This document shows, in pieces, positions 918-18,872 of a stretch of DNA of 32,000 nt. The stretch spans positions 26,294 through 58,293 of the forward strand of contig CAAEBC010000055.1 of the NCBI GenBank assembly GCA_900753975.1, in the 5' to 3' direction. A program made the translations under genes and the position numbers. This DNA comes from Clostridia bacterium. Its GTDB lineage: Bacteria > Bacillota > Clostridia > TANB77 > UBA1234. Every line of letters starts with the position of its first letter. Position 1 is the first letter of the stretch. The notes below the pieces were generated by a model that was given only the letters and a program-made list of their open reading frames with translations, did no database searches and had not been told where the DNA came from.

Positions 918-3104
918 CTATCTTAACAAGTTTTCAGTCATAACACTCATAAGCATAACTAGCAAAAGAGCCACGTCAAAAATATAGTCATGAAAAACGT
1001 ACAAATACTTTTTAGCAAGTTTAAAATCTACTTTTATTGCAAGCAAATCTTGTATTTTCTTTCTACTCTCCTTATTGATTAAGGCCCTTATAAATAAGTC
1101 AATTCCATAAACCAAGCTTGCAATCAACAAAAATACCAAACCAATAGCAAATCTTTCTGGCAATATCATTTCTAAAGCAGCAAAACCATTGTTAACAAAG
1201 TGAATAAACATAGTTAACTTTATATCATTTGTGTATAAATATATTGCTCCCAAAACTATACCTATTATAAACGCAAAAAGTCCTTGTGATAAATTCATGT
1301 GTACAAACCCAAATAATAACGCAGGAAAAATTAGAGCAAATTTTTTACTATACTTTGAAGTCAAATCAATAAGTGCTTTTCTAAAAAATAGTTCTTCAAA
1401 AATTCCAGGGATAATAGCTATCGAAATAATTGCAATTATTTTCGTCATAATACTAGAGTCCGAACTTATATCAAACATATCTACACTACTATAATCAAGT
1501 CCAATCTTTGGATAAAGTAGGCCAAGTAAAAATTGTAATCCAAAAATTAAAACCAATGCTAAAAATACAATCTTTGCTTTCTTTCCTAACTTAAATTCTT
1601 TCTTTGTAGGATTTTTTTCTACATAACTAAGCACAAACTTAGCTGCGATTCCCAAAGATACCACTTGAAGAATTATTTGTAAAATCAAAGTAAGCTCTGT
1701 TGTAGTTAACACGTTTTCAAATAATACTGGTAAAATCATACCACAAATTAATGAGAAAATAACTTGTAGTCCAATATAAATAACAAGTCCCATTCCAACG
1801 ACAAATCCAATGCTTTTCACATTCTTCTTTTCAATATACTCTTCTTGTGTTTCTACTTCCTTTGTCTTTTTCTTTTTAAGTTTCGTATAATTTAAAATTC
1901 CATTTTTAAAAGGCTTTGCAGTAAGATTAAAAAATACTGGTATTGATACTACTAATATTAATAGCGAAGCCAAAATTTGCCACATTTTTGCTTGGCCTAT
2001 TACCATCATTGCTGGGACAAAATAAGCTGAAAGCACAGGTAAGCAAGAAATCAAATATAAAAGCAAACTTACCTTGTTATATGGTGTTATAAAATAAACA
2101 GTCGCAGTATATGCTATCATCATGCCAAAAACAATAAGCGAAACCGTATTTCCAGCTTCAGAAGATGAACTTGTTTTAGCAGCAACCAAAGCTTGAAAAA
2201 TGCAAAGTAAAATCAAATTCAAAACATTATAAATTATAAGCATCAATATATAAATAACAATATCTTTGCTCATATTGTTAAACATAAATGAAGCGCTAAG
2301 CTTAATGTCAGTCTGTGCAATATTTATAATCTGCGAAATCAATGCTGCAATATAATAATAAACAATCATAAGTAACCCTTGTAAAACAAGAATTATAACA
2401 TTACTAAATATTTTAGCAAACAAATACTCCTTTTCAGAAACAGTTGTAAGTATATACTCTGTTGACTTAGACTGCTTTTCTTGAGAAATCTCACTTGCAA
2501 GTTTAGAAAAAACAAAAACGGCAAGCAAATACGTTGCTGCTGCAGAAAACAATTTAATATACTCTTTTGATTCCGAGTCCTTTGCATCAACAGAAAGCAT
2601 CACTCTATTAACACTTAAATCTTTTTGAAACGTTAAAATATCCCCAGACGAAACATTATACCTTTTTGAAAAAAGTGTATTTCTTATTTCATACATTTTG
2701 TCTTTCACTGGTGAATATATAGAAAGTTTTATTCCTTCTTTTGAAATTAAATTAATCTTAAAACATTCTTCTTCATCCGGCAAAACCTCTATAACAGCAA
2801 AGTCATCTGGCATATTTTCTGCATTATACGTATTTTCTGTTATTCTACTTATCTTAATATTTTCTCCACTTTCAAGCTCACTTAATCCGTCATAAATCAA
2901 ATCTCCACTATCCAATATAGCAAATTCAAAAGGTTTTTCTGTCTCTTCAGGTTTAAATAAAGTAGTAATAGAATTCCAATTCAATATAAGCACAGCACTA
3001 ATTAAACTTATAATATTAAAAGCTAGAAACCACTTATTTTGAATATTTTTATAAATTGAAAACTTAATAATCTCTCTTGTTTTTTGACTATTCATTATTT
3101 TCAC
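918..3104 (-). CDS. ABC-2/NatB-like permease fused to a C-terminal CPBP (CAAX/Abi) intramembrane protease domain
   Basis: 728-aa polytopic protein whose start overlaps the stop of the upstream ABC ATPase. The C-terminal part carries the three CPBP motifs: EELFFR, FGFVH and FIHFVNN. Confidence 0.75.
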   Translation of the reverse strand: MKIMNSQKTREIIKFSIYKNIQNKWFLAFNIISLISAVLILNWNSITTLFKPEETEKPFEFAILDSGDLIYDGLSELESGENIKISRITENTYNAENMPDDFAVIEVLPDEEECFKINLISKEGIKLSIYSPVKDKMYEIRNTLFSKRYNVSSGDILTFQKDLSVNRVMLSVDAKDSESKEYIKLFSAAATYLLAVFVFSKLASEISQEKQSKSTEYILTTVSEKEYLFAKIFSNVIILVLQGLLMIVYYYIAALISQIINIAQTDIKLSASFMFNNMSKDIVIYILMLIIYNVLNLILLCIFQALVAAKTSSSSEAGNTVSLIVFGMMIAYTATVYFITPYNKVSLLLYLISCLPVLSAYFVPAMMVIGQAKMWQILASLLILVVSIPVFFNLTAKPFKNGILNYTKLKKKKTKEVETQEEYIEKKNVKSIGFVVGMGLVIYIGLQVIFSLICGMILPVLFENVLTTTELTLILQIILQVVSLGIAAKFVLSYVEKNPTKKEFKLGKKAKIVFLALVLIFGLQFLLGLLYPKIGLDYSSVDMFDISSDSSIMTKIIAIISIAIIPGIFEELFFRKALIDLTSKYSKKFALIFPALLFGFVHMNLSQGLFAFIIGIVLGAIYLYTNDIKLTMFIHFVNNGFAALEMILPERFAIGLVFLLIASLVYGIDLFIRALINKESRKKIQDLLAIKVDFKLAKKYLYVFHDYIFDVALLLVMLMSVMTENLLR

Positions 3105-3819
3105 CTACCTTATCTATAAAAATATCATTTAAAGAATTGGCGTTTTTACCATCAATCTTATAATCAGCTAATATCTCCTTTAAATTTCCATACAATAAAG
3201 CCTCTCCGTGATTAATAATCAAAACATCATCACACAAGTTTTCAACATGATTCATAACATGAGAAGAAAAAATAATTGTTTTGCCTTCATTTTTTAATTT
3301 CATAATCGCCTTTTCTAATTCTTCAACACTAACAGGGTCAAGCCCTGAAAATGGTTCATCAAGAATTATAAAATCAGGATTATGCAAAACAGAAACAATA
3401 AACTGAATCTTTTGCCTATTCCCTTTTGAGAGCTTGTTTACTTTCATATTGAAATATTCACTAATGCCAAATTCATTCAGCCACTTCTTTAAGCTCTCAT
3501 GTATTTCTTCTTTATTCATTAGCTTTAAAGCACCATAATACTCGCAAATATCAAGCACCGTAAACTCCGGAAGTAGGCTTCCCTCTTCAGGTAAGTATCC
3601 AAAAGTATCTAGAACTTTGCTATCTATCTTCTTGCCATTAAAAAGTATTTCGCCTTTTGTTGGATTAATTAAATTTAAAATCATTCTAAAAATAGTAGAT
3701 TTTCCAGCACCATTTCTTCCAACTATTCCAAGCACCTTTCCATCTTCCACCTTAAAAGAAATATCCTTAACAGCAGTAACTTTTTCAAATTGTTTTGTAA
3801 CATTTATAAACTCTAACAT
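3088..3819 (-). CDS. ABC transporter ATP-binding protein
   Basis: Walker A GRNGAGKST, signature LSKGNRQK, Walker B IILDEP, H-loop SSHVM. The start is preferred at ATG 3819 (MLEFINV), 5 nt after AAGGAGG, rather than the TTG at 3834 in the ORF track. Confidence 0.9.
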   Translation of the reverse strand: MLEFINVTKQFEKVTAVKDISFKVEDGKVLGIVGRNGAGKSTIFRMILNLINPTKGEILFNGKKIDSKVLDTFGYLPEEGSLLPEFTVLDICEYYGALKLMNKEEIHESLKKWLNEFGISEYFNMKVNKLSKGNRQKIQFIVSVLHNPDFIILDEPFSGLDPVSVEELEKAIMKLKNEGKTIIFSSHVMNHVENLCDDVLIINHGEALLYGNLKEILADYKIDGKNANSLNDIFIDKVGENNE

Positions 3820-3916
3820 ACATCCTCCTTTCAATCAAGAATAGTATAATACAAAAAGTCGTCTCTTAAAATATTATAATGACACTTTTTTGTGTTTTGG
3901 CTTGAGCAAATAAAAA

Positions 3917-3944: not shown

Positions 3945-4020
3945 TGGCTGGGCTGGGAGGATTCGAACCGCCGAAATGCCAGAGTCAAAGTCTGGTGCCT
4001 TACCACTTGGCTACAGCCCA
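3945..4020 (-). tRNA. tRNA-Gln (anticodon UUG), CCA encoded
   Basis: Reverse complement starts TGGGCTGTAGCCAAGTGGTAAGGCACCAGACTTTGACTCTGG. The anticodon loop is CTTTGAC. There is one C-U mismatch in the T stem. Confidence 0.92.
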
Positions 4021-4035
4021 ATATTTAAATATGCA

Positions 4036-4113
4036 TGGGGTGAAAGATGGGACTCGAACCCACGACCTCTAGGGCCACAACCTAGCGCTCTAACCAACTG
4101 AGCTACATCCACC
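4036..4113 (-). tRNA. tRNA-His (anticodon GUG) with encoded G-1 and CCA
   Basis: Reverse complement is GGTGGATGTAGCTCAGTTGGTTAGAGCGCTAGGTTGTGGCCCTAGAGGTCGTGGGTTCGAGTCCCATCTTTCACCCCA. The anticodon loop is TTGTGGC. The extra 5' G pairs with discriminator C, as is typical of tRNA-His. Confidence 0.93.
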
Positions 4114-4204: not shown

Positions 4205-4359
4205 GTTGCAATTCAGACTAAAAATAGGTATAAGGTCTGATAAGACTTTTATCCGCAAGGCTTTGTCAAGGTAGTATTGCTGACGTAATCTCCACCTTGA
4301 CAAAATTGCTTCTAAAAGTCTTATCAGATCTTATACCTATTTTTAGTCTGAATTGCAAC
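4205..4359. mobile_element. 155-bp MITE-like palindromic element
   Basis: 46-nt terminal inverted repeats (4205-4250 vs 4314-4359) match at 45 of 46 positions. There is an inner 11-bp stem (4262-4272 / 4294-4304). The element is flanked by AAAAGAATG (4196-4204) and AAAAGAAATG (4360-4369), which look like a target-site duplication. It contains no ORF. Confidence 0.5.
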
Positions 4360-4369
4360 AAAAGAAATG

Positions 4370-4455
4370 AAAAGTTATGTCAAATACATGGAGCTGCACA
4401 TCTTGGTAAGCTTTCTGCTAGCCAAATGCCTCTTACGTATTGGACATAACTTTTT
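4370..4455. terminator. long-stem hairpin, probable bidirectional terminator downstream of the DNPH1-like gene
   Basis: An 18-bp stem with one mismatch (AAAAGTTATGTCAAATAC / GTATTGGACATAACTTTT) encloses about 49 nt. T-rich runs follow on both strands. Confidence 0.4.
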
Positions 4456-4464
4456 ATTTTATGT

Positions 4465-4881
4465 TTAATTCTTCACATTCGAGTTAATAAACTCTGAAAT
4501 TACAGTTTTAGCACTTTCAATGTCAGGATATCCAAAAGTAGTAACATATGGGCAATCAATAACCATTCTAGTTAGTGGCTTCATCGAATTCATGTCAAAG
4601 AGACAAAGAATCGGAATCTTTTTTTCCATCCGAATTGCATGCTCAATTTCCATCCCAACACCTATCGATGGAACAGTAATCTCTGCAACAAGTACATCAC
4701 TATTATCCAGCCAAGTAATATCTCTAGCATATACGTTGACACTTTTCTCCGACTTACTCTTTAATTCACCAACATGTTTAGTCCAAACATTTCCAAATCC
4801 CTCAAGAAATCTAATCAATTCCTTATAAACCGGTTGTTTTCCCCGACCGCCAGCAATGGAACCACTAAAGTAAATATTCAT
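4465..4881 (-). CDS. 2'-deoxynucleoside 5'-phosphate N-hydrolase (DNPH1/Rcl family, nucleoside 2-deoxyribosyltransferase-like fold)
   Basis: 138 aa. IYFSGSIAGGRG, DITWLDNSDVLVAEITVPSIGVGMEIEHA and ILCLF align by eye with the recalled DNPH1 motifs LYFCGSIRGGR, DLEWLQQADVVVAEVTQPSLGVGYELGRA and ILCLF. An AGGAGG Shine-Dalgarno is present. Confidence 0.85.
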   Translation of the reverse strand: MNIYFSGSIAGGRGKQPVYKELIRFLEGFGNVWTKHVGELKSKSEKSVNVYARDITWLDNSDVLVAEITVPSIGVGMEIEHAIRMEKKIPILCLFDMNSMKPLTRMVIDCPYVTTFGYPDIESAKTVISEFINSNVKN

Positions 4882-4918
4882 TTACTTACCTCCTAGAGTC
4901 ATAATTTCCGTATGCCAA

Positions 4919-4985
4919 ATTATATAACATTATGTAAATTTTTTCAACAAAAAATATTGAAAAATACGTACTTTCATGCTAATAT
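4919..4985. promoter_or_regulatory. back-to-back divergent promoters for the DNPH1-like and McrB-like genes
   Basis: Minus strand: TTGAAA (4947-4942), 17 nt, TATAAT (4924-4919). Plus strand: TTGAAA (4957-4962), 17 nt, TAATAT (4980-4985). The two -35 boxes are only 9 bp apart. Confidence 0.55.
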
Positions 4986-5019
4986 GGTTACAGTTTAAAA
5001 TTCAAATATCTAGGAGGAA

Positions 5020-6285
5020 ATGATGTTTATGGGTAATACTTATTGGTGGCTTAGCATAAATCCAAAAATGCTTAGATTTAGAGACTTAGAAGTTGGAGAT
5101 TGCTTCTACTATACAGCTCTAAATGAAGATGGAACGCCAAGAACTTTATATAAAAATTTTACAGAAATAAAAAAAGGTGACTTAGTAATCGCTTACGAGC
5201 TTGACCCAGCTAAAGAAGTAATTGGTCTTTGTCAAGCAATCGAAGAAATAAATGATAACAAAGTAATGTTTAAAAAAATAGAAGGTCTTACTGATACAGT
5301 ATCAAGATACATGATTGAGTCACATATCGAGCTTGCTAACTTAGAAGTTTTCAGATACACACAAGGAACTTTATTTAAACTTTCAAATAGAGAATATGAA
5401 GTAATCTACAGCATGATGCGTGAGTTAAACCCTAAAAAGCAATACAGATACTACGAAGACTACGATAAGGAAAGATTTTTAAAAGAAGTATATTTTGAAG
5501 AAAAAGATTACGATGAGCTTCGCTCTTTAATATTACGTCGTAAAAACGTAATATTACAAGGAGCTCCAGGTGTTGGTAAAACGTACATTGCTAAAAGAAT
5601 GGTCTACTCTATTTTAGGTAGAAAAGACGAAGAAAAAATCTTATCTGTCCAATTCCATGAATTGTATTCAAACGACGAATTTATGGAAGGTTATCGTCCT
5701 GATGATATAGGCATATACAAATATAAAAGGGGCTGTTTTAAGAGAATTTGCAACAAGGCAAGAAATGATCCAAGCAACAAATATTTCGTAATAATAGATG
5801 AAATAAATAGAGGAAATATCACAAAAATATTTGGAGAAGCATTCTCTTTAATAGAAATCGATAAACGTGGAAAAGATAATTACATTGAACTTGCTTGTTC
5901 AAGAGAACGTTTCTATGTACCAGAAAACGTGTATATCATAGGAACTATGAATACTTTCGATGAAAAACTTGCAATAAAAGACTATGCTCTAAGAAGAAGA
6001 TTTTGCTTTTACACAATAAACCCTGCTTTTGAAAATGAAGACTTTAAAAAGTTTTACTCGCAAAATCCATTACTTTCAAAAGTAGTTTCTGCTGTGGTAA
6101 ATGTAAACAAAGACTTAAGCGACGATTTAAAAATTGGTCATTCATACTTTTGTAAACCAATGGATGATGAAGACATTAAAATGACTGTAAAATACAGCAT
6201 CGAGCCATTAGTAAAAGAATATTACAGAGACAATATAAACTTGCAAAATAACTACATAAAAACATTAGAAGACACTATAAAATAA
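5020..6285 (+). CDS. McrB-family AAA+ GTPase with an N-terminal EVE/PUA-like domain
   Basis: The C-terminal half carries GAPGVGKT (Walker A), VIIDEINRGN...FGE, IIGTMNT and ALRRRF, which are McrB-type motifs. The N-terminal ~140 aa (YWWLSINPK...GDLVIAY...GTLFKLS) resembles an EVE/PUA-like reader domain. The real start may be ATG 5023 or 5029, given the AGGAGG position. Confidence 0.8.
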   Translation: MMFMGNTYWWLSINPKMLRFRDLEVGDCFYYTALNEDGTPRTLYKNFTEIKKGDLVIAYELDPAKEVIGLCQAIEEINDNKVMFKKIEGLTDTVSRYMIESHIELANLEVFRYTQGTLFKLSNREYEVIYSMMRELNPKKQYRYYEDYDKERFLKEVYFEEKDYDELRSLILRRKNVILQGAPGVGKTYIAKRMVYSILGRKDEEKILSVQFHELYSNDEFMEGYRPDDIGIYKYKRGCFKRICNKARNDPSNKYFVIIDEINRGNITKIFGEAFSLIEIDKRGKDNYIELACSRERFYVPENVYIIGTMNTFDEKLAIKDYALRRRFCFYTINPAFENEDFKKFYSQNPLLSKVVSAVVNVNKDLSDDLKIGHSYFCKPMDDEDIKMTVKYSIEPLVKEYYRDNINLQNNYIKTLEDTIK

Positions 6286-6341
6286 AAGTTTCAAAAACGA
6301 ATTAAAAATGAAACCCGAGAAAAGTGGGCGACGAGAAAAAT

Positions 6342-6390
6342 GAGAAAAAGGGACAGACCTTCCAAATATTGAGGTCCGTCCCTTTTTCTC
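6342..6390. terminator. bidirectional terminator between the McrB-like and XRE genes
   Basis: 18-nt arms GAGAAAAAGGGACAGACC / GGTCCGTCCCTTTTTCTC form a stem with two mismatches. T-rich runs follow on both strands. A third copy of the 3' arm lies at 6409-6423. Confidence 0.65.
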
Positions 6391-6433
6391 AAAAGTGAGA
6401 ATTTTCCTCCGTCCCTTTTTCTCATCAACTATT

Positions 6434-6844
6434 TTATCTACGATTTCTTAACTTTTGACGCATTTTTATCATTCGCTCTCTTCGTTCTTTTTCCAACTTT
6501 TCTAACTCTTTCTGAGCCAAAATATTTTTCCTTGTTTCATAAAGTAAAGCTACGTCTTTCAAAAAACTTTCTTCTTTCGTATCGCAAACATCTGTCATAA
6601 GATAACTATCAATCATGTTAATTATTTTCTTATAAGTGATTCTTTCCGGACATACAAAACTTTCCACGCAAATCTCAAAATAATCACAAATTTCGATAGC
6701 ATCTTCCAAATTAACGTTTCTTCTTCCCTGCTCAATATTAGAAATCTTTGAGCGACTCATTCCAAGCTTTTTGCCCAATTCATATTGAGAATATTTTTTG
6801 CTTTTTCTGAGGAATACCAAACGCTTTGCGACACTTTCTTCCAT
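6434..6844 (-). CDS. XRE-family helix-turn-helix transcriptional regulator with a charged helical C-terminus
   Basis: The N-terminal HTH_3-like segment is YSQYELGKKLGMSRSKISNIEQGRR. An AAGGGGGA Shine-Dalgarno is present. Confidence 0.85.
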   Translation of the reverse strand: MEESVAKRLVFLRKSKKYSQYELGKKLGMSRSKISNIEQGRRNVNLEDAIEICDYFEICVESFVCPERITYKKIINMIDSYLMTDVCDTKEESFLKDVALLYETRKNILAQKELEKLEKERRERMIKMRQKLRNRR

Positions 6845-6897: not shown

Positions 6898-8262
6898 TTA
6901 GATTGTAAAAGTTCCTCCAGGAGTATCTAATATCATAAAGACTTTCTCTTCTCTACCATTTTCAATATTTATATAAACAATAAAATTCCTATCATTCATT
7001 TTTCCTTTAAACTCATAAGCTGCAACTTCCGTCTTCCAATCAGTTGGTATAATTGTAACAGTAGAAGAAAGTATTTCAAGTTTTGAATTAATTTTCTTTT
7101 GTGCTTCTTGCATAGATATATTTACTTTTGGCAAATCCCTCTTGCGATGCGAATTAAGATAGCTTTGACTTTCCAATCCCAAAACCTCACCATTATCCAA
7201 AGCCACTTTAACCTTTACTAAATCAGGATAACAAATGATTCCGTTTTGATTAAAAGCATAATTAATTGTCAAAACACCATTCTCATTTGTAAAATATGAC
7301 TCTTTCATTTCTCCAAAGCCATGTTTTTCTAGGAAGTCTTTACCAATTGCATTTGCTTGTTCTTTCGTTACATTTTCATTTGCCACATTTCTAGAAATAT
7401 CCATCCACAAAACATGACCACCCTGCTCAGTCACATTTATATACCCATTTATTTTACTATCAAGCACAAAAGAAAAACTATACGATTTGATATTTCCATT
7501 AACAATTCCATTACTTTTAAGCTCCGTTATCCTCGTTTTATCTACATATTCATATACTTTTTCTTTTGCCTTTTCTTCACTATACACCTCACTACCAAGC
7601 CCTAGTGGTTTACTACTAGTCATATGCTCTGAAAAAGGTCCGTCATAGATAAGCCCCTCATAGTCTTGCATATCTTGTTCAATCTTAGAAAAACTGTCCT
7701 TTGAAATATTAGCAACCTCTTGTGCTAAAAATGCGGTATTTTCCTCTTTTGTAAGCTCTTTCCACGAAATACTATTACTTGCCAAATCACTAGCTAAGCC
7801 TTGAATTGTACTGTTTAAAGTTTGGCACGTCTCATAGTAATCATTTAAATTTTCATAATCATCATCTTTTAAGTTTTCGCCGTCTATTAACTTGTTAGCT
7901 AAGCTATACGAATAATCGCTAAGCTGATTAAAAAACTTAACAGCCGTATTTAAAACATTACTATCTGTAGGTATTTGTGAAAGTGAAGATTGCGCCAAAT
8001 CTGCCTTTCTCCAAATATTATTAAGTGTTTTGGCAGAATAACTTGATGTATTAGAAATCTGTGCTTTTGCAAGTAAAGTTTCAACATTTTGCGTATATTC
8101 AACAAGCTCATAAAAAGCCTTATCATACGAATTCGAAAGTGTCTGTGTAAGTTCCTTGTTCCTAATATTCAAATAAAAAGATATTCCCACAAAAATCATC
8201 AAAGCAACAAGTGCAATACGTAATCCTCCACTTAAATCTACTCTTTTATTCCAAAACTCCAT
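6898..8262 (-). CDS. ypeB: germination protein YpeB (PepSY-domain)
   Basis: An N-terminal TM helix is present. Blocks such as NSYDKAFYELVEY, NNIWRKADLAQSSLSQIP and VKVALDNGEVLGLESQSYLNSHRKRDLPK match recalled B. subtilis YpeB. The start is preferred at ATG 8262, 8 nt after GAGGTGG. No sleB is adjacent. Confidence 0.85.
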   Translation of the reverse strand: MEFWNKRVDLSGGLRIALVALMIFVGISFYLNIRNKELTQTLSNSYDKAFYELVEYTQNVETLLAKAQISNTSSYSAKTLNNIWRKADLAQSSLSQIPTDSNVLNTAVKFFNQLSDYSYSLANKLIDGENLKDDDYENLNDYYETCQTLNSTIQGLASDLASNSISWKELTKEENTAFLAQEVANISKDSFSKIEQDMQDYEGLIYDGPFSEHMTSSKPLGLGSEVYSEEKAKEKVYEYVDKTRITELKSNGIVNGNIKSYSFSFVLDSKINGYINVTEQGGHVLWMDISRNVANENVTKEQANAIGKDFLEKHGFGEMKESYFTNENGVLTINYAFNQNGIICYPDLVKVKVALDNGEVLGLESQSYLNSHRKRDLPKVNISMQEAQKKINSKLEILSSTVTIIPTDWKTEVAAYEFKGKMNDRNFIVYINIENGREEKVFMILDTPGGTFTI

Positions 8263-8362
8263 CAAAATTACCACCTCGTAAGTTATTTTGGGGTCAAAAA
8301 CTTATAATTATACACAAATGTAAAAAAATATGTTAAAATGTTCTTGATTGGAGGTAGATATA

Positions 8363-9484
8363 TTGGATAAAAAAATCGTAATATTATATGCAGCTCTTGG
8401 TGGAGGACACTTTAAAGCTGCAGAAGCAATCAAAAACTATATACTAGAAAATAAGCCAGGCTGTAGTGTAGAAATGCTAGATGCTTTAAAGTACGCAAAT
8501 AAAGCAGTAGACAAAATAATAATAAACTCATACGTAAATATGGCTCGATACTCACCAGAACTTTGGGGAAACATATACAAATTAAGTGCAAAACAATACT
8601 CAGTAGCAAACTTCAGTAATGCCGTGCAAAGACTATTATCGCTAAAACTTGTAAAATACCTAAATGAACAGAAACCCGATATAATAATTTCTACGCACCC
8701 GTTCATAACAGAAATGTGTGCTATTTTGAAAAAGAAAAATCAAGTAAACTCAAAATTAAACGTAATAATAACAGACTATGCATCACATAGATTTTGGGAA
8801 CTAAAACCAGAATTCATCGATAATTACTTTGTAGCAAATAACGAAATAAAATATAAAATGGGCTTTAACGGAATAGATTTAAATAAAATTCACGTAACTG
8901 GAATTCCTGTATCTCCAGCATTTTTGAAAAAATATGATAAAGAAAAAATCTATGAAGAATTCGGGCTAGATAAAAATAAGAAAACTGTTTTAATATTCGG
9001 TGGTGGCGAATATGGGTTATCAAATGTAAAGACCTTTTATAAAGGGCTAATAGATACAGACTTAGACATCCAGATCGTCACTGTAGCCGGTAAACGTCAA
9101 AAAAGTCAAAAGATGTTTGCAGATATCGCCAACGGTTCTAATAAAAAAGTTATCATCTTAGGCTATACTACAAAAGTGCCAGAGCTAATGAACATTGCAG
9201 ACCTTATAATATCTAAACCAGGTGGATTAACAACAACAGAGATTATAACAACACACGTACCATTTGCAATAATAAATCCAATTCCAGGTCAAGAAGAAGA
9301 AAATGCCGAATTCTTATTAAACAACGGTGCTGCTGTACAGATATTCGATGCCAAGAGCACAAAGCCATTCATAGAGCATTTACTTACAGACGAAATACGT
9401 TTAGAAAATATCAAACAAATGCAAGCCCACATCGCTAAACCAAATTCTACGAGAGATATTGTTGATGTGATTTTTAAAGAATAA
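8363..9484 (+). CDS. ugtP: diacylglycerol glycosyltransferase (UgtP / MGDG-synthase family, GT28)
   Basis: GGGH near the N-terminus, VITDYASHRFW, VTGIPV and ISKPGGLTTTEI...PIPGQEEENAEFL match recalled UgtP blocks. The start is preferred at TTG 8363, 8 nt after GGAGG; the ORF track starts at TTG 8348. Confidence 0.85.
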   Translation: MDKKIVILYAALGGGHFKAAEAIKNYILENKPGCSVEMLDALKYANKAVDKIIINSYVNMARYSPELWGNIYKLSAKQYSVANFSNAVQRLLSLKLVKYLNEQKPDIIISTHPFITEMCAILKKKNQVNSKLNVIITDYASHRFWELKPEFIDNYFVANNEIKYKMGFNGIDLNKIHVTGIPVSPAFLKKYDKEKIYEEFGLDKNKKTVLIFGGGEYGLSNVKTFYKGLIDTDLDIQIVTVAGKRQKSQKMFADIANGSNKKVIILGYTTKVPELMNIADLIISKPGGLTTTEIITTHVPFAIINPIPGQEEENAEFLLNNGAAVQIFDAKSTKPFIEHLLTDEIRLENIKQMQAHIAKPNSTRDIVDVIFKE

Positions 9485-9496
9485 CTTATATTAAAA

Positions 9497-9565
9497 AACT
9501 GCAGTTAAATTAATTACTGTCTCCCTACAGGGTGACACTTCATTAATTTCAACTGCAGTTTTTGC
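9497..9565 (+). terminator. rho-independent terminator of the glycosyltransferase gene
   Basis: Arms AACTGCAGTTAAATTAAT / ATTAATTTCAACTGCAGTT pair with one bulge and are followed by TTTTG. Confidence 0.7.
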
Positions 9566-9797
9566 TTAATTCTTACTTAATTTTTCTTCTGGAATTTCTT
9601 ATCTTTCTATTCAATAGTAATTTGCATTCCATTTTCATTCCAAATATCTCGTGTCTTATTAATTCTATCAGTCTGTGTTTTGCCAATACAATCTCTCATA
9701 ATTCTAGCATCCTCAACTGGTGTAATTGTTCTTATAAGGTTCTATAATTTTAGTTAGAGTTTACCACCCCAACTATTAACAAAGAACCGCAAAAAAT

Positions 9798-9837
9798 AAA
9801 TCCTGTAACTCTTACTACTGTAAGGTTTACAGGATTT
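9798..9837 (-). terminator. rho-independent terminator of the Lys-Glu-Thr tRNA cluster
   Basis: Stem AAATCCTGTAA / TTACAGGATTT, followed on the minus strand by ATTTTTTG. Confidence 0.65.
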
Positions 9838-9839
9838 AG

Positions 9840-9915
<76 letters not shown>

Positions 9916-9919
9916 AAAC

Positions 9920-9994
9920 TGGTGACCCGAGGGAGAGTCGAACTCCCCACTCCGCCGTGAAAGGGCGATGTCTTAACCGATTGACCATCGGGCC
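9920..9994 (-). tRNA. tRNA-Glu (anticodon UUC), CCA encoded
   Basis: Reverse complement is GGCCCGATGGTCAATCGGTTAAGACATCGCCCTTTCACGGCGGAGTGGGGAGTTCGACTCTCCCTCGGGTCACCA. The anticodon loop is CTTTCAC. Confidence 0.93.
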
Positions 9995-10007
9995 ATAAAA
10001 TAAATAA

Positions 10008-10083
10008 TGGTGAGCCATCGCAGATTCGAACTGCGGACAACTTGATTAAAAGTCAAGTGCTCTGCCAACTGAGCTAATGGCCC
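10008..10083 (-). tRNA. tRNA-Lys (anticodon UUU), CCA encoded
   Basis: Reverse complement is GGGCCATTAGCTCAGTTGGCAGAGCACTTGACTTTTAATCAAGTTGTCCGCAGTTCGAATCTGCGATGGCTCACCA. The anticodon loop is CTTTTAA. Confidence 0.93.
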
Positions 10084-10120
10084 ATCACCTTGCAAACGTG
10101 TTAATCACGACTGCTTCTCT

Positions 10121-10149
10121 ATACTACTACATTTTTTTACAGATGTCAA
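10121..10149 (-). promoter_or_regulatory. sigma-A type promoter for the Lys-Glu-Thr tRNA cluster
   Basis: On the minus strand: TTGACA (10149-10144), 17-nt spacer, TAGTAT (10126-10121). Confidence 0.5.
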
Positions 10150-10188
10150 CATGTTTTTTTAAAAAATCTTCCAAAAAATTTTTAAATT

Positions 10189-10374
10189 TTATATATTATT
10201 TAGTTTTTCAATAAGAGCATCAACGTCTATACCATGTACTAAACAAGCTTCCTCTAATGTTTCGCCTGCTGAAGCTGGACATCCTAAACAATGCATTCCT
10301 GCCTCTAATAAAATTTCAGGATATTTCTCGTTCATACCCACAATTTCTCCAATAAGCATATCTTTAGTTACCAT
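10189..10374 (-). CDS. DUF1858-type small redox protein (hybrid-cluster-protein-associated disulfide domain)
   Basis: 61 aa. The protein carries MHCLGCPAS, and TLEEACLVHGIDVDALIEKLN is typical of this family. A GTGAGGT Shine-Dalgarno is present. Confidence 0.8.
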   Translation of the reverse strand: MVTKDMLIGEIVGMNEKYPEILLEAGMHCLGCPASAGETLEEACLVHGIDVDALIEKLNNI

Positions 10375-10484
10375 ATTAATACCTCACAATCTTTATAATA
10401 TTTAAAATCGACATAACCATTTAACCACATTTTTGTTATGTTTATTAATGACACAAAATGTGTCAAATATTTTTGATAAATATC

Positions 10485-10512
10485 TAGACACGAAAAAAAA
10501 CAATGCTATAAT
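10485..10512 (+). promoter_or_regulatory. possible promoter of the plus-strand T4SS-like operon
   Basis: TAGACA (10485-10490), 16-nt spacer, TATAAT (10507-10512). Confidence 0.4.
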
Positions 10513-10536
10513 CACATTCAAAAGGTGGTGATACAT

Positions 10537-10773
10537 TTGAAAGCAAAACATATTTACCTTTTGTTAATCACTATTTTTGTTATAATCTCGGTCGTACTTA
10601 AAATACTTACGTCATTCTCAAATCAAACTTCAGTTTTTTTATACTCTTTATTTTTCCATCTAATTGTTTCAGCATACATTTGCTATAGCTGGTTTGAACT
10701 ATTCGTATTGCAAGAAAAGCAAGGTAGCAAACTAATAAAAAGTAAACAAAAACTAAATTCTGACTGGAGATGA
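10537..10773 (+). CDS. small two-TM membrane protein, first gene of the T4SS-like operon
   Basis: The ORF track starts at GTG 10525. TTG 10537 sits about 6 nt after AAAGGTGGTGA. The stop overlaps the next gene's start (ATGA). No domain was recognised. Confidence 0.45.
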   Translation: MKAKHIYLLLITIFVIISVVLKILTSFSNQTSVFLYSLFFHLIVSAYICYSWFELFVLQEKQGSKLIKSKQKLNSDWR

Positions 10774-12443
10774 TTAATATTTTTAGCACTTCTACATTTT
10801 ACAACAAAAAATTCTTCATTTCAACATTTTTATTAATTATACTAATATTAAATTTATTTCTTTTTAAAGATGTTTACGAAGAACAATCTATATCTATATT
10901 ATTCCTAGAAAAAATCCATTCAATTCCTAAAGATATTTCCAAAATTTTTAAAATACTCTACTTTTTTTCTTTAATAATTTCATGGAGCTTTTTTCTAAAC
11001 ATAATATATCAAAAGTTTATAATTCCCACTATTCCTGAAAAAACTAAAACAAATATTCAAGAAAAAAATTCATTAATAATTGGCAAGAACTTATCAGACG
11101 GTAAAATTGTTTCGATACCCGAAAAAGGACTTTATCAAAACATATTGATTACTGGAACAATCGGTACAGGCAAGACCTCTTCAGCAATGTACCCTATCAC
11201 AAAACAATTATTAAATATGGGAATTGGTATGCTAGTTCTTGACGTTAAAGGAAACTTTCACGAAAAAGTAAAAGAGCTGTCGGCAAACACAAATAAAAAA
11301 CTAATAGTGATACAACTTGGTGGTAAATATACTTATAATCCTTTAGACAAACCAAATTTAAAGCCATCTATTTTAGCTAATCGCATAAAAACAATACTTA
11401 CTCTATTTTCAAATCAAAACACAACAGACTCATATTGGCTTGACAAAGTAGAATTATATTTAACAGAATGCATAAAACTCTGTAGACTCTACAACGATAA
11501 CTATGTAACATTCATCGAACTTCATAAATTAATTAACGATTCAAAATACTTAGAAGATAAAATTTCTATTGTTAAAAATTTGTTCCTTTCCAATAGCTTA
11601 AATCAATCTCAAGTATATGATTTCAAAACATCTTTAGAATTTTTTACATCTGAATTCAAATCTCTTGATTCAAGAGTACTTTCCATTATTCAATCAGAAG
11701 TTTCAAGGATAACCCAGTTATTTGTAAGTGATTACGAAGTCGCAAAAACTTTTTGTCCAGACAAAGCTAATATCTCGTTTTCAGGATTTGAAAACTTAGA
11801 AGATAATATTGTTGTGTTAAATATGAATATAGCAGAGTATCGAAATTTATCGAAAATAATTGCGACTTACTTAAAACTAGATTTTCAATCAGAAGTTCTT
11901 ATGCGATTAGCAAAAAAAAATACTATAAAACCAGTTGCTTTTGTGTGCGATGAATATCATGAATATGCCACCCAAAACGATGCTGACTTTTTTTCAGAAA
12001 GCAGAGAAGCAAAATGTATAAATATAGTTTCCACTCAAAGCTATACCTCGCTTCTAAATGCTGTCAGAGAAAACTCAGCAGCCAAAATCATCATTCAAAG
12101 CCTAGTAAATAAAATATGGTTTCGAACTGATGATATATTCACTATCGAAGAAGCACAAAAGCAACTAGGAAAGGAGGACAAAACTAAATATAGTCACACT
12201 ATATCAGAAAATGCAAAAGAGACAAAATTTAACTATATACTTAATAACTTCAAATCAAGTAATTCCAATATTTCTGAAAGCATAAGTTCTCAAATTCATC
12301 ACGACTTTATCTATGATATCAATACTTTTTCAAGAGAACTGCGAACATTTGAAGCAATATGTTTTTTGTCAAACGGATATGAAATCTTAAAGCCACAGAT
12401 CCTACAGCTTACACCTGAATTCAAAGCAAATAGATTTATATAA
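10770..12443 (+). CDS. type IV coupling protein (VirD4/TraG/TraD family ATPase)
   Basis: N-terminal TM helices, Walker A GTIGTGKTSS, VLDVKGNF, DSYWLDK, and Walker B-like VAFVCDEYHEY are present. The size and layout match the T4CP family. Confidence 0.8.
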   Translation: MINIFSTSTFYNKKFFISTFLLIILILNLFLFKDVYEEQSISILFLEKIHSIPKDISKIFKILYFFSLIISWSFFLNIIYQKFIIPTIPEKTKTNIQEKNSLIIGKNLSDGKIVSIPEKGLYQNILITGTIGTGKTSSAMYPITKQLLNMGIGMLVLDVKGNFHEKVKELSANTNKKLIVIQLGGKYTYNPLDKPNLKPSILANRIKTILTLFSNQNTTDSYWLDKVELYLTECIKLCRLYNDNYVTFIELHKLINDSKYLEDKISIVKNLFLSNSLNQSQVYDFKTSLEFFTSEFKSLDSRVLSIIQSEVSRITQLFVSDYEVAKTFCPDKANISFSGFENLEDNIVVLNMNIAEYRNLSKIIATYLKLDFQSEVLMRLAKKNTIKPVAFVCDEYHEYATQNDADFFSESREAKCINIVSTQSYTSLLNAVRENSAAKIIIQSLVNKIWFRTDDIFTIEEAQKQLGKEDKTKYSHTISENAKETKFNYILNNFKSSNSNISESISSQIHHDFIYDINTFSRELRTFEAICFLSNGYEILKPQILQLTPEFKANRFI

Positions 12444-14184: not shown

Positions 14185-14236
14185 ATTGCCAAACCGAGAA
14201 AAAGTGTATATTATTATTTTGCTAGGGGGCAATATT

Positions 14237-15211
14237 ATGAATTTTGAACAAAACTTATCACTAATATTTGAAAATATGTCTATACCAGAAGTCTTTATTT
14301 CAGAATACCTTTGCACTGCAAATGGTGATTATGTAAAGATTTATTTGTATTGCTCTTTTTTATGTAAACATAATGTCGACATTTCCGCCCTAGACCTTTC
14401 ACAGAAGCTTGGTATATCTATTCAAAAAGTTGAGCAAGGTTTAAAATATTGGGAAGATAATGGTGTTATGATACGTAAAGGTGAATCTTATGTTTTAGCA
14501 GATTTAAAGCAAATCGAAGTAAACAAACTATATACACCCAAACTATCCTTATCAACAGAAGATGCAATCAAAAATACAGAAAGAAATGTATATCGTTCAC
14601 AAGCAATCAGTGCAATAAATGATATGTTTTTCCAAGGACTTATGTCTGAGACTTGGTTTGCAGATATTAATCTTTTGTTTACAAAATACATGTTTGATGA
14701 AAATGTGGTCTTGTCACTATTTAATTACTGCTATGCTCGAAAGGCATTACACAGAAAATATCTATTTGCTGTTGCAGATGCTTGGGCAAAGAACAACGTA
14801 AAAACTCAAGAAGACTTAGACAGATATTCTTTATCTTACGAAAAAGCAATTCAAGTTAAACGAACAATTGCTAAAAAACTTGGGCTTACACGAAATCTTT
14901 CTGAATACGAAGAAGCTTACGTTGAAAAATGGGTTCTTGAGTTTGGCTATTCATTAGATATAATAGAAATAGCTCTTAGACGCACAACATCAAAAACAAA
15001 TCCAAGTTTTAATTACTTAGATAAAATTATTACAGATTGGCACGAAAGAAACTTAAATACTGAATCAGAAGTAAACACATTTATAAAAGAACAAAAAGAA
15101 AAAAATAAAGCCATTAAAAACATTACTACTGGTAATCAAACGGTATTGCAAGCATACAAAGACACTGCAACAGCTCAATACGATGACTTATCTAAGTTTT
15201 ATATGAACTAA
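14237..15211 (+). CDS. DnaD/DnaB_2-domain replication initiation protein (B. subtilis DnaB/DnaD-like)
   Basis: Two DnaB_2-type repeats are present: YLFAVADAWAKNNVKTQEDL and FNYLDKIITDWHERNLNTESEV. The start is set at ATG 14237, 8 nt after AGGGGG, because the ORF-track start at 14186 lies directly after the -10 box. Confidence 0.8.
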   Translation: MNFEQNLSLIFENMSIPEVFISEYLCTANGDYVKIYLYCSFLCKHNVDISALDLSQKLGISIQKVEQGLKYWEDNGVMIRKGESYVLADLKQIEVNKLYTPKLSLSTEDAIKNTERNVYRSQAISAINDMFFQGLMSETWFADINLLFTKYMFDENVVLSLFNYCYARKALHRKYLFAVADAWAKNNVKTQEDLDRYSLSYEKAIQVKRTIAKKLGLTRNLSEYEEAYVEKWVLEFGYSLDIIEIALRRTTSKTNPSFNYLDKIITDWHERNLNTESEVNTFIKEQKEKNKAIKNITTGNQTVLQAYKDTATAQYDDLSKFYMN

Positions 15212-16442: not shown

Positions 16443-18872
16443 TTATAAAATGTCCTCTGAAATTATCTTAGCGATACCAACAACTTTTCCACCATCGTTA
16501 GTTCTCATCAAAGTAACACCTTGAGTTGATCTACCTAGTACACTAATATTCATAACTTCTAATCTAATAATTACTCCCTTATCTGTAATTAGCATCACAT
16601 CGTCATTATCGTCAACAACTTGGATGCCTACAACCTTACCTGTTTTTGGAGTTGTCTTATAAGTAATTACACCTTTACCTGCTCTAATTTGTACTCTGTA
16701 CTCCTCAAGCTCAGTTCTCTTACCAAAACCATTTTCAGTTATAGCTAACAAGTATGCCTTTTCATTATAAATAGGTTCCATACCTACTACAAAATCGCCT
16801 TCAGAAACTCTAATACCAATTACACCTTGAGATACTCTTCCTACAGGTTTTACATCACTTTCAGCAAAAGTAATTGACATACCTTCATGAGTTACCATTA
16901 CGACATTTCTCTCGCCATCAGTTAATCTTACATCAATTAATTCATCGCCATCTTTCAAAGAGATTGCTTGTAGTCCAGTCTTTCTAGCACTATTGTACTC
17001 TAACAATTTTGTCTTCTTGATAATACCACCACGTGTAGCCATAAGTAAATATTGACCCTCTACAAACTCTTTTATAGGAATAACAGCAGTAACCTTTTCA
17101 TCTCCATCTAATTGTAGTAAGTTTACAATAGCTGTGCCTTTAGCGGTTCTGCCAGCTTCTGGCACTTCATATCCTTTTAATCTATATACTTTACCTTTAT
17201 TAGTAAAGAACATCAAAGTATCATGAGTAGAAGTAACAAATAATTGTTTTACGAAGTCTTCCTCTCTAGTTTGAATTCCTGTTATACCTTTTCCACCTCT
17301 TCTTTGAGCTTTATATGTATCAACAGGCATTCTCTTAATATATCCAAAACGTGTCATTGCAACAACAACACTTTCTTCTTTTATCAAGTCTTCGTTTGTC
17401 ATTTCTCCTTCTGCAGCTATTATTTGAGTTCTTCTTTCATCTCCATATTTAGCTTTCATTTCAAGCAATTCATCTCTTATAATATCACAAACCAATTTTT
17501 CACTAGCTAAAATTGCTCTATATCTTTCAATTTGTTCCATAAGTTGCTTATACTCTTCTTCAATTTTTTCTCTTTGTAATCCAGATAAAGTTCTAAGTTT
17601 CATTTCCAAAATGGCATTTGCTTGGATTTCAGTTAACTTAAATCTCTTCATAAGTCTTTCAGCAGCATCATCATAAGCAGCTCTAATGATAGCTATAACT
17701 TCATCAATATAATCAAGTGCAATTCTTAATCCTTCTAAAATATGAGCTCTTGCTAAAGCTTTGTCCAAATCAAATTTTGTTCTTCTAACAATAACTTCTT
17801 TTCTGTGCTCAATATAGCATTCAAGCATTTGCCTTAAAGTCAAGATCTTTGGCTCGCCTTTTACAAGTGCAAGCATGATAGCTCCAAAAGTATCTTGTAA
17901 TTGAGTATTTTTCAAAAGCTGATTTAAAACAATCTTAGGATTTGCATCCTTCTTAAGTTCAATAACAATTCTCATACCCTCTCTGTCCGATTCATCTCTC
18001 AAATCAGATATTCCGTCTAAACGTTTGTCACGAACCAAATCAGCAATATTTTCAATAAGTCTTGCTTTATTTACTTGATAAGGAAGTTCAGTAACAACAA
18101 TTCTATATCTACCATTACCATGCTCTTCAATTTCTGTCTTAGCTCTTACAATAATCTTGCCTCTACCCGTTGTATAACAGCTTCGTATACCTTCTTTACC
18201 AACAATAATTCCTCCAGTAGGAAAATCAGGTCCCTTAATTTCAGTCATCAAATCCTCATCAGTAACATTATCTTCTTCAACTAATCTAATAATCGCATTA
18301 ATAACTTCTGTTAAATTATGTGATGGTATGTTAGTAGCCATACCTACAGCAATACCAGAAGAACCATTAACTAATAAATTTGGGATCTTAGCAGGTAAAA
18401 CAGTTGGCTCTTGCAACTTTTCATCATAGTTAGGCATAAAATCAACTGTATTCTTTTCAATATCATCAAGCATTTCCACAGCAATCTTTGGCATTTTAGC
18501 TTCTGTGTACCTCATAGCAGCTGCACTATCGCCGTCGACACTACCAAAGTTACCATTACCATTTACCATCATGTATCTTAAAGAAAAGTTTTGCGCCATT
18601 CTTACCAAAGCATCATAAATAGACGCATCACCATGAGGATGGTATTTACCCATAACCTCTCCGACAATATAAGCAGATTTTCTGAAAGGCTTCTCTGGTG
18701 TAAGACCAAGACCATTCATAGAATACAAAATTCTTCTGTGAACTGGTTTTAAACCATCTCTAACATCAGGAAGTGCTCTTGAAACAATTACGCTCATAGC
18801 ATAATCTATATAAGACTTTTTCATTTCTTTTTCGATGTCTACTCGAATAATTTTTTTTGCATTTTCTTCCAT
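16443..18872 (-). CDS. gyrA: DNA gyrase subunit A
   Basis: 809 aa. The N-terminus carries DGLKPVHRRILY and the active-site region AAMRYTE. The GyrA-box QRRGGKG in the C-terminal domain distinguishes it from ParC. An AGGAG Shine-Dalgarno is present. Confidence 0.96.
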   Translation of the reverse strand: MEENAKKIIRVDIEKEMKKSYIDYAMSVIVSRALPDVRDGLKPVHRRILYSMNGLGLTPEKPFRKSAYIVGEVMGKYHPHGDASIYDALVRMAQNFSLRYMMVNGNGNFGSVDGDSAAAMRYTEAKMPKIAVEMLDDIEKNTVDFMPNYDEKLQEPTVLPAKIPNLLVNGSSGIAVGMATNIPSHNLTEVINAIIRLVEEDNVTDEDLMTEIKGPDFPTGGIIVGKEGIRSCYTTGRGKIIVRAKTEIEEHGNGRYRIVVTELPYQVNKARLIENIADLVRDKRLDGISDLRDESDREGMRIVIELKKDANPKIVLNQLLKNTQLQDTFGAIMLALVKGEPKILTLRQMLECYIEHRKEVIVRRTKFDLDKALARAHILEGLRIALDYIDEVIAIIRAAYDDAAERLMKRFKLTEIQANAILEMKLRTLSGLQREKIEEEYKQLMEQIERYRAILASEKLVCDIIRDELLEMKAKYGDERRTQIIAAEGEMTNEDLIKEESVVVAMTRFGYIKRMPVDTYKAQRRGGKGITGIQTREEDFVKQLFVTSTHDTLMFFTNKGKVYRLKGYEVPEAGRTAKGTAIVNLLQLDGDEKVTAVIPIKEFVEGQYLLMATRGGIIKKTKLLEYNSARKTGLQAISLKDGDELIDVRLTDGERNVVMVTHEGMSITFAESDVKPVGRVSQGVIGIRVSEGDFVVGMEPIYNEKAYLLAITENGFGKRTELEEYRVQIRAGKGVITYKTTPKTGKVVGIQVVDDNDDVMLITDKGVIIRLEVMNISVLGRSTQGVTLMRTNDGGKVVGIAKIISEDIL

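Follow-up and report, generated by a model that had tools for sequence, protein, structure and literature searches.

The GTPase McrB is defined in textbooks by its dependence on McrC. A stretch of 32,000 nucleotides from a Clostridia bacterium (GenBank assembly GCA_900753975.1, contig CAAEBC010000055.1, positions 26,294 to 58,293 of the forward strand), referred to as the window throughout, raises the question which function an McrB can have that is encoded without an adjacent McrC and with its gene back to back to that of a small DNPH1-like enzyme. The genes concerned encode an EVE-McrB GTPase (open reading frame of 421 amino acids, 5020–6285, plus strand; assigned by Pfam, NCBIfam and PDB alignment) and a DNPH1/Rcl-like nucleotide N-glycosidase of 138 amino acids (4465–4881, minus strand; assigned by PF05014 and by PDB matches to Rcl/DNPH1). 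An initial annotation of this DNA had proposed that the two form an anti-phage system. The reading that we tentatively favour, with a probability of roughly 45%, is that of an exapted, McrC-independent EVE-McrB to which a lineage-specific accessory DNPH1-like gene was added.

An EVE-McrB GTPase without an adjacent McrC

The C-terminal part of the larger protein is that of an McrB. Residues 124–412 align to Escherichia coli McrB with an E-value of 1e-62 and the NCBIfam McrB model matches with an E-value of 7e-62, while no NCBIfam family lies above its cutoff for either the EVE-McrB or the DNPH1-like protein. The McrB-type AAA+ GTPase domain with its lid (5455–6255, plus strand), delimited by alignment to 6HZ4 and 6UT6 and by a motif table, contains the Walker A motif GAPGVGKT, the Walker B motif IIDEINR, the Arg finger/sensor II pair in ALRRRF and an intact guanine-stacking His, and homologues carry precomputed matches to PF28529 (McrB_lid). 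The N-terminal EVE (PUA-like) domain (residues ~8–137; 5041–5430, plus strand) gives a Pfam EVE match below the threshold (19.9 versus 23 bits, E 8e-4). An AlphaFold model of residues 1–170 (pLDDT 82) was compared to the PDB by Foldseek and the top fold matches are EVE domains (2gbs, 2ar1, 1zce, VcaM4I, THYN1 and 2eve; E 2e-8 to 1e-4). As judged by this predicted fold, the N-terminal domain is of the modified-DNA-reader class, and the description of the protein as an McrB-type GTPase behind an EVE-like domain, given in the initial annotation, is supported at both ends. The true start is probably the ATG at 5023 or 5029, giving 420 or 418 amino acids, since the homologues have 417–420 amino acids and open with M-x-N-YWW.

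It was shown that E. coli McrB requires McrC for stimulated GTPase activity and for cleavage (PMC7680126). A tblastn search with seven McrC sequences (E<=10) returned no McrC in the 32-kb window, confirming that none is adjacent. To place the protein among its relatives, a protein search was performed, which resulted in more than 120 clusters of about 50–100% identity, nearly all of them with the same architecture and 416–434 amino acids, a few being truncated. About 30 distinct loci were gathered by contig look-ups and by scanning metagenomes with the EVE domain as seed; in the loci outside the window 6–10 kb to either side of the gene were inspected, the contigs being short. Within this distance McrC is found beside the gene at none of the ~30 loci of the clade, which comprises proteins of 417–438 amino acids with at least 50% identity. 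Relatives at 44% identity or less have the same EVE domain, mostly in proteins of 800–940 amino acids (442–450 in L041–L043; outside loci and homologous proteins carry our L and P numbers), and all ten of their loci that extend past the McrB stop codon encode an overlapping downstream McrC (PF10117); in L043 and L044 the sequence stops too soon for scoring. One of these McrC-linked relatives is located on the Butyrivibrio plasmid pCY186. As a separate observation, L037 encodes a second, more divergent McrB-like GTPase (9295–10596) about 1 kb downstream of its McrBC pair, the McrC gene of which ends at 8327. Tandem McrBC systems were reportedly noted by Bell et al., and the arrangement of L037 fits.

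The separation of the two groups is mirrored in the signature motif, which in McrB occupies the place of sensor I. The sequence MNxxDRS was described as common to all McrB homologues by Niu et al., its Asn and Asp being needed for turnover, and exchange of the Arg in E. coli McrB (R337A) increases the basal GTPase activity about three-fold (PMC7680126). In the window protein MNTFDEK replaces MNTADRS, i.e., Asn and Asp are kept and Arg-Ser is gone. The same holds for every member of the McrC-less clade examined (MNTFDEK, MNTYDDN, MNIADKE and others), and 103 of the 106 homologues scored have no Arg at this position. In contrast, MNTADRS is present in 10/10 McrC-linked relatives that share the EVE domain. 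The loss of McrC thus coincides with the loss of the signature Arg-Ser, which argues for a real functional shift and not for a partner supplied in trans. This large and strongly conserved McrB clade of gut Clostridia, devoid of McrC and of Arg-Ser, represents a natural experiment on the control of the McrB GTPase.

The EVE-McrB gene is under very strong purifying selection. The ratio of nonsynonymous to synonymous substitution rates (dN/dS) of the EVE-McrB gene is 0.016 between the window and L005 and 0.04–0.05 at greater distances; comparison genes reach 0.075 (ypeB) and 0.044 (MGDG synthase gene), so that EVE-McrB is more constrained than both. With intact motifs and a dN/dS of 0.016–0.05 the possibility of a degenerate remnant was rejected. 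The neighbourhoods of the clade members are of housekeeping type: the gene lies between rpoD-dnaG-recG and rpmB-nth-uvrD in four lineages and beside thioredoxin and DsbD-like genes in seven or eight, and further neighbours are purA, a ThyX-like gene and SMC as well as the series dnaX-ybaB-recR-MGDG synthase-ypeB-XRE. A recurring neighbour as alternative effector was considered and rejected, because the recurring genes (thioredoxin/DsbD, recG, rpmB, purA, ThyX-like, SMC) include no nuclease.

The DNPH1-like protein and the history of the pair

The small protein matches PF05014 (Nuc_deoxyrib_tr) with 31.2 bits at a cutoff of 28.8, and in the PDB its sequence matches human DNPH1 and rat Rcl only (E 6e-19 to 1e-17). 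This supports the family assigned in the initial annotation; the match is not a close one, the identity amounting to only 37–39%. Residue roles were mapped from human DNPH1 (PMC10603095). The catalytic triad is kept, with Tyr4, Asp54 and Glu78 corresponding to human Tyr24, Asp80 and the nucleophile Glu104, as are the phosphate ligands Ser72 and Thr104 (human Ser98 and Ser128'; relatives have Ser at the position of Thr104). Of the set for base recognition and water activation only His56 is kept, as Arg30 is replaced by Ala10, Asp73 by Ser and Glu55 by Lys35. The preference for 5-hydroxymethyl-dUMP (hmdUMP), which the initial annotation had mentioned for the human enzyme, is unlikely to apply here, because three of the four compared base-handling residues of the human enzyme are exchanged. 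Judged by its residues, the protein is best called a DNPH1/Rcl-family nucleotide N-glycosidase with an altered base pocket.

The remodelling extends to the closest relatives, in which Arg30 is always lost and GVGYE is changed to GVGME. Within this DNPH1-like clade His56 is retained only in the window group and in P0010, and most members have Asn at the position of the general acid (human D80), where Asp occurs in the window group as well as in P0010 and P0200. The exchange of Glu55 to Lys occurs only in the window group and, seen together with the Asp/Asn pattern, looks complementary, which suggests that the chemistry in the clade may be altered. The next-nearest DNPH1-like proteins (~40% identity) keep GSIRGGR, TEHV and RD and therewith a standard active site; one of them, P0017 (40% identity, L054), is encoded away from McrB among GIY-YIG genes. 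A dN/dS of 0.10–0.25 shows that the DNPH1-like gene is functional and that it evolves several times (~3x) faster than the EVE-McrB gene; in the same genome pair the amino acid identity is 98% for EVE-McrB and 83% for the DNPH1-like protein. Between the window and L005, dS is ~0.56 for the McrB gene and ypeB and 1.2–1.3 for the DNPH1-like and XRE genes, a contrast that could reflect recombination, codon constraint or the noise of short genes.

The two genes of the window are divergent and separated by 138 bp, in which sigma-70-like promoters are placed back to back. Pattern and conservation define a promoter-like site for the DNPH1-like gene (4919–4947, minus strand; TTGAAA-17-TATAAT, 11/12 matches), whose ATG is preceded at 7 nt by the ribosome-binding site AGGAGG, and one for the EVE-McrB gene (4957–4985, plus strand; TTGAAA-17-TAATAT with extended TG). 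The opposing -35 boxes are separated by 9 bp, exactly as the initial annotation had stated. This layout is the same in 7/7 lineages compared: TATAAT/TTGAAA is followed after ~9 bp by TTGAAAAA-17-TG.TAATAT on the other strand, and the plus-strand promoter is conserved as CTTGAAAAA...TG.TAATAT in the seven lineages.

Members of the DNPH1-like clade lie beside EVE-McrB, in divergent orientation, in 9/9 lineages examined and down to 41% identity: the window with L013 and L014, L005 (83%), L047 (62%), L001 and L002 (54%), L048–L052 (51%), L003 and L004 (50%), L056 and L057 (49%), L053 (42%) and L058–L060 (41%). Another seven clade members (P0196–P0198, P0200, P0201, P0203 and P0204) are left out of this count. 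The outer genes vary. In the window the pair is flanked by tRNA genes and a palindromic element on one side and by XRE-ypeB on the other; elsewhere p134-GDPD (L001, L003), GDPD-alr versus a gene of 711 amino acids and a radical SAM gene (L056), or a gene of 203 amino acids versus XRE-ypeB-MGDG synthase (L058) are found. The order ypeB-XRE-McrB-NDT, NDT being the DNPH1-like gene, is kept in L058, a distant relative with 77% identity in McrB.

In the opposite direction the association does not hold, as the DNPH1-like gene is absent at ~19 loci of the McrC-less clade that have enough upstream sequence. In neighbour-joining trees of the GTPase, all loci carrying the DNPH1-like gene fall into one subclade. 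L011, which has no such gene, is sister to this subclade, and L015, also without it, is nested inside. L015 is syntenic with L001 (McrB / p134-like / GDPD) and the hydrolase gene is gone without a trace. Most simply, the gene was gained once and lost once. Every hydrolase of the clade with visible context accompanies the GTPase, whereas the GTPase usually occurs without the hydrolase, making the dependence one-way. The co-occurrence that the initial annotation had suggested as a check is therefore real for the hydrolase, and it is restricted to one direction and goes back to a single acquisition. This one-way association is a lead both on the modified base recognized by the EVE domain and on the role of bacterial DNPH1-like enzymes.

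Some observations at individual loci may be added. Directly after the McrB gene L015 carries a gene (2579–3850, minus strand) whose product has an HTH_38 domain as well as a TnsD match below the threshold; it was read as transposase-like and would be a hint of local rearrangement. A small Cys-rich protein, p134, with the motif PGHPxCxxxxCxxCxxVxCxIxQG and no Pfam family, is encoded after the DNPH1-like gene in some lineages (L001, 2111–2515; L003, 1733–2131) and also at L015 (468–851, minus strand), and the DNPH1-like proteins P0014, P0204 and P0205 (L053, L058) carry its C-terminal motif fused to their own C-termini. The fusion is a hint that p134 may be a third component. The window has no p134 gene, and remnants of a p134 or GDPD gene were not found in it.

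Surroundings of the pair and competing explanations

The window consists of AT-rich chromosomal DNA of Clostridia type and carries ypeB (6898–8274), gyrA, tRNA genes and the signal recognition particle RNA. Upstream of the DNPH1-like gene, tRNA-Gln and tRNA-His (3945–4112) are followed by a near-perfect palindromic element of 155 bp (4205–4359) with arms of 54 nt (93% complementary) and an inner inverted repeat of 11 nt, and a second inverted repeat of 23 nt follows at 4365–4459. The palindrome had been called similar to a miniature inverted-repeat transposable element; the palindrome itself is there and its nature as such an element is unproven, as it occurs in a single copy within the window and matches no Rfam family. 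Similarly, the pair does lie between the tRNA genes and ypeB, as initially annotated, and the term islet finds no support: the GC content is flat along the window (0.30–0.36), synteny with ypeB is deep and the gene order recurs in L058, so that the reading as a mobile islet was rejected.

At the other end the EVE-McrB gene is followed, as initially annotated, by a terminator and a convergent gene of the XRE family (6434–6844, minus strand; helix-turn-helix family HTH_3, E 4e-12). The bidirectional intrinsic terminator between the two genes (6341–6391) was recognized by repeat finding and folding and has arms of 20 nt (95% complementary), which are bordered by an A-run and, at the opposite end, by a T-run, and a folding energy of -45.6 kcal/mol (z = -5.6); a strict terminator pattern scan gave no match because the loop of 11 nt exceeds its loop-size limit. 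A 17-nt exact direct repeat, TCCGTCCCTTTTTCTCA, at 6375–6391 and 6408–6424 copies the 3' arm of the hairpin, the second copy offering the 5' arm another partner for pairing. Only where ypeB adjoins (window, L005, L058) is the XRE gene conserved as a neighbour; it is absent in L056 and L015 and probably stands outside the pair. Farther away, a gene for a TrwB/TraG-D coupling protein-like product (10770–12443, plus strand) and one for a TraG/VirB4 P-loop ATPase-like product (23687–25504, minus strand) share the window with gyrA (16443–18872) and a DnaB_2 gene (14186–15211), and these conjugation-like genes are possibly what is left of an integrated conjugative element.

With respect to defence, PADLOC v2 contains no model that matches the 138-amino-acid hydrolase at E<=0.1, and the GTPase matches the generic REase_II and AAA models only, so that no described system in this collection matches both proteins together. 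No defence-island context surrounds the pair in the window, and a search of phage GenBank records and two scans of IMG/VR viral contigs returned no relatives of either gene. In plasmid records, searched with the McrB-like query only, all relatives have less than 60% identity and, among the matches listed, are McrC-linked or without EVE domain.

According to the reading that we favour, EVE-McrB, which keeps the machinery for GTP binding and hydrolysis and has no adjacent nuclease, would act independently of McrC. The protein would probably be hexameric, its EVE pocket might bind nucleic acid with a modified base, and McrC-independent GTP hydrolysis might drive translocation, remodelling or switching without any cutting. 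Its role would be exapted and chromosome-resident, of the kind described for Staphylococcus aureus PcdA (see below), and not that of a restriction enzyme. The small gene would have been acquired once beside the GTPase gene in one sub-lineage and would then have stayed there with back-to-back promoters. Its product, which probably acts on a (deoxy)nucleoside 5'-monophosphate different from hmdUMP, would be an accessory of use only together with the GTPase and might clear away modified nucleotides tied to the EVE ligand, and the GTPase would not need the hydrolase. A functional link between the two proteins is plausible; that the pair serves in defence is unproven, and its context speaks against a defence role of the classical kind.

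Several points weigh against this picture. McrC or another nuclease is possibly encoded farther off. The restriction ancestry and the retained reader of modified bases leave room for a possible role in defence. The exchange of the general-acid Asp for Asn in most members may mean that the enzymology of the DNPH1-like proteins differs or that some copies are impaired. The GTPase trees are neighbour-joining trees without bootstrap support. Moreover, the order recG-McrB-rpmB is kept at 68–74% identity in McrB between functionally unrelated neighbours, and as such neighbours are equally stable, conserved adjacency alone is weak evidence of coupling.

The last point leads to a serious rival explanation, namely that the two genes are neighbours only by descent, a DNPH1-like gene for salvage or pool sanitation having been inserted by chance beside a solitary EVE-McrB gene in one ancestor and kept there by the stability of the local gene order, with products that work separately. 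A single gain with one clean loss, the synteny of ypeB-XRE-McrB (77%), as stable as that around recG and rpmB, the far-apart evolutionary rates and an McrB clade that clearly functions without the hydrolase all speak for such an accident. We nevertheless regard it as somewhat unlikely, since every examined member of the DNPH1-like clade adjoins McrB despite differing outer genes, the compact divergent promoter architecture is conserved, both proteins plausibly handle modified bases, and the nearest outgroup proteins have a standard active site, the one with visible context (L054) being encoded elsewhere. The same constancy beside McrB in 9/9 lineages, with conserved promoters and changing flanks, would also suit the two-gene anti-phage module of the initial annotation, in which EVE-McrB senses modified phage DNA and the DNPH1-like protein, as effector in place of McrC, destroys pools of (modified deoxy)nucleotides and blocks phage replication. 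Here the ancestry in McrBC type IV systems, to which the nearest relatives that share the EVE domain belong (one of them on a plasmid), can be added, as can the ~3x faster evolution and remodelled base pocket of the DNPH1-like protein, which could fit an arms race. Effectors with nucleoside-deoxyribosyltransferase fold, which exist in some retron systems, also speak for it. What remains of that proposal is that both genes are intact, that McrC is absent and that the pair recurs. Its defensive part finds no counterpart in a PADLOC model for the hydrolase, in a defence island, in a GC anomaly or in the phage and viral sequences searched, and the plasmid relatives stay below 60%, those listed being McrC-linked or without EVE. 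Furthermore, most of the McrC-less clade has neither the DNPH1-like gene nor another recurring candidate effector, the pairing arose once, the neighbours are housekeeping genes, McrB is under housekeeping-grade constraint (dN/dS 0.016), and in L015 the DNPH1-like gene was lost cleanly while McrB was retained, making the module unlikely.

A related proposal, which we consider more doubtful still, takes the pair as a nuclease-free descendant of McrBC, in which McrB, released from McrC through the loss of Arg-Ser, would report modified nucleic acid and the dedicated, fast-evolving DNPH1-like N-glycosidase, in some lineages fused to the Cys-rich module, would be the effector; if true, it would constitute a new type of modification-dependent immunity, directed at nucleotides or bases and operating without the cutting of DNA. 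Very improbable, finally, is a classical McrBC system whose McrC is encoded elsewhere and acts in trans. It would be allowed for by the intact core of the GTPase, by an alignment with E. coli McrB that reaches the C-terminal lid and by the fact that only part of each genome was inspected; on the other side stand the lack of McrC in the window and within 6–10 kb of the gene at ~30 loci, the overlap of the McrC gene with the end of McrB in all ten McrC-bearing relatives, and the clade-wide loss of Arg-Ser, which matches the loss of McrC exactly.

Comparison with known systems

The individual parts of the pair are known. Neither an McrC-less clade of McrB proteins with a single EVE domain and without Arg-Ser, nor a dedicated DNPH1-like partner of it, nor a Cys-rich module fused to such a partner was found described in the literature searched; the same search returned no link between DNPH1 and McrB and, of McrC-less McrB clades, PcdA only. 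The nearest described relatives are the EVE-McrBC type IV systems of Clostridia (Butyrivibrio proteoclasticus pCY186, BPR_RS19115/mcrC; L035–L045). Their EVE domain is homologous (27–39% identity over the first ~170 residues), the identity over the whole protein is 33–44%, and Walker A, Walker B, RRRF and IGHSYF are common to both. However, these proteins mostly have 800–940 amino acids, the long ones with extra N-terminal sequence, contain MNTADRS and are followed by an overlapping McrC gene, whereas the window protein has ~418 amino acids, MNTFDEK and no McrC. E. coli K-12 McrB (6UT6, 6HZ4, 7VSR) shares all nucleotide-binding and catalytic motifs except Arg-Ser; it carries a DUF3578-type DNA-binding domain together with Arg337 and Ser338, in place of which the window protein has an EVE domain and no Arg-Ser.

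For the DNPH1-like protein the point of reference is human/rat DNPH1 (Rcl), the N-hydrolase of 5-hydroxymethyl-dUMP, which belongs to the same family (PF05014) and has the Tyr-Asp-Glu triad and the two phosphate-binding positions in common. It differs in Arg30, Asp73 and Glu55, which are replaced in the window protein, and in His56 and Asp80, which are replaced in most relatives of the clade. Retron effectors similar to nucleoside deoxyribosyltransferases, for which PADLOC models served as proxy, have the same broad fold and likewise a nucleic-acid-sensing partner; they differ from the present case in that the 138-amino-acid protein has no PADLOC match and neither a reverse transcriptase nor a non-coding RNA is present.

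The closest precedent, and the only described one found, is S. aureus PcdA. It was shown that this EVE-McrB family protein of Firmicutes, which has no McrC, was exapted from restriction to chromosomal housekeeping (PMC10602043). PcdA contains two EVE domains, a degraded Walker A and an eroded Walker B motif, has lost one Arg finger, has no C-terminal helical bundle and is confined to coccoid staphylococci (PMC10602043). The window protein resembles it in the lack of a linked McrC and in its chromosomal, non-defence context, and differs in having one EVE domain, intact NTPase motifs and the lid, for which reason it is no orthologue of PcdA. The EVE-McrB clade of the Clostridia would therefore be a second, independent reuse of a restriction motor after PcdA, in this case with an intact NTPase.

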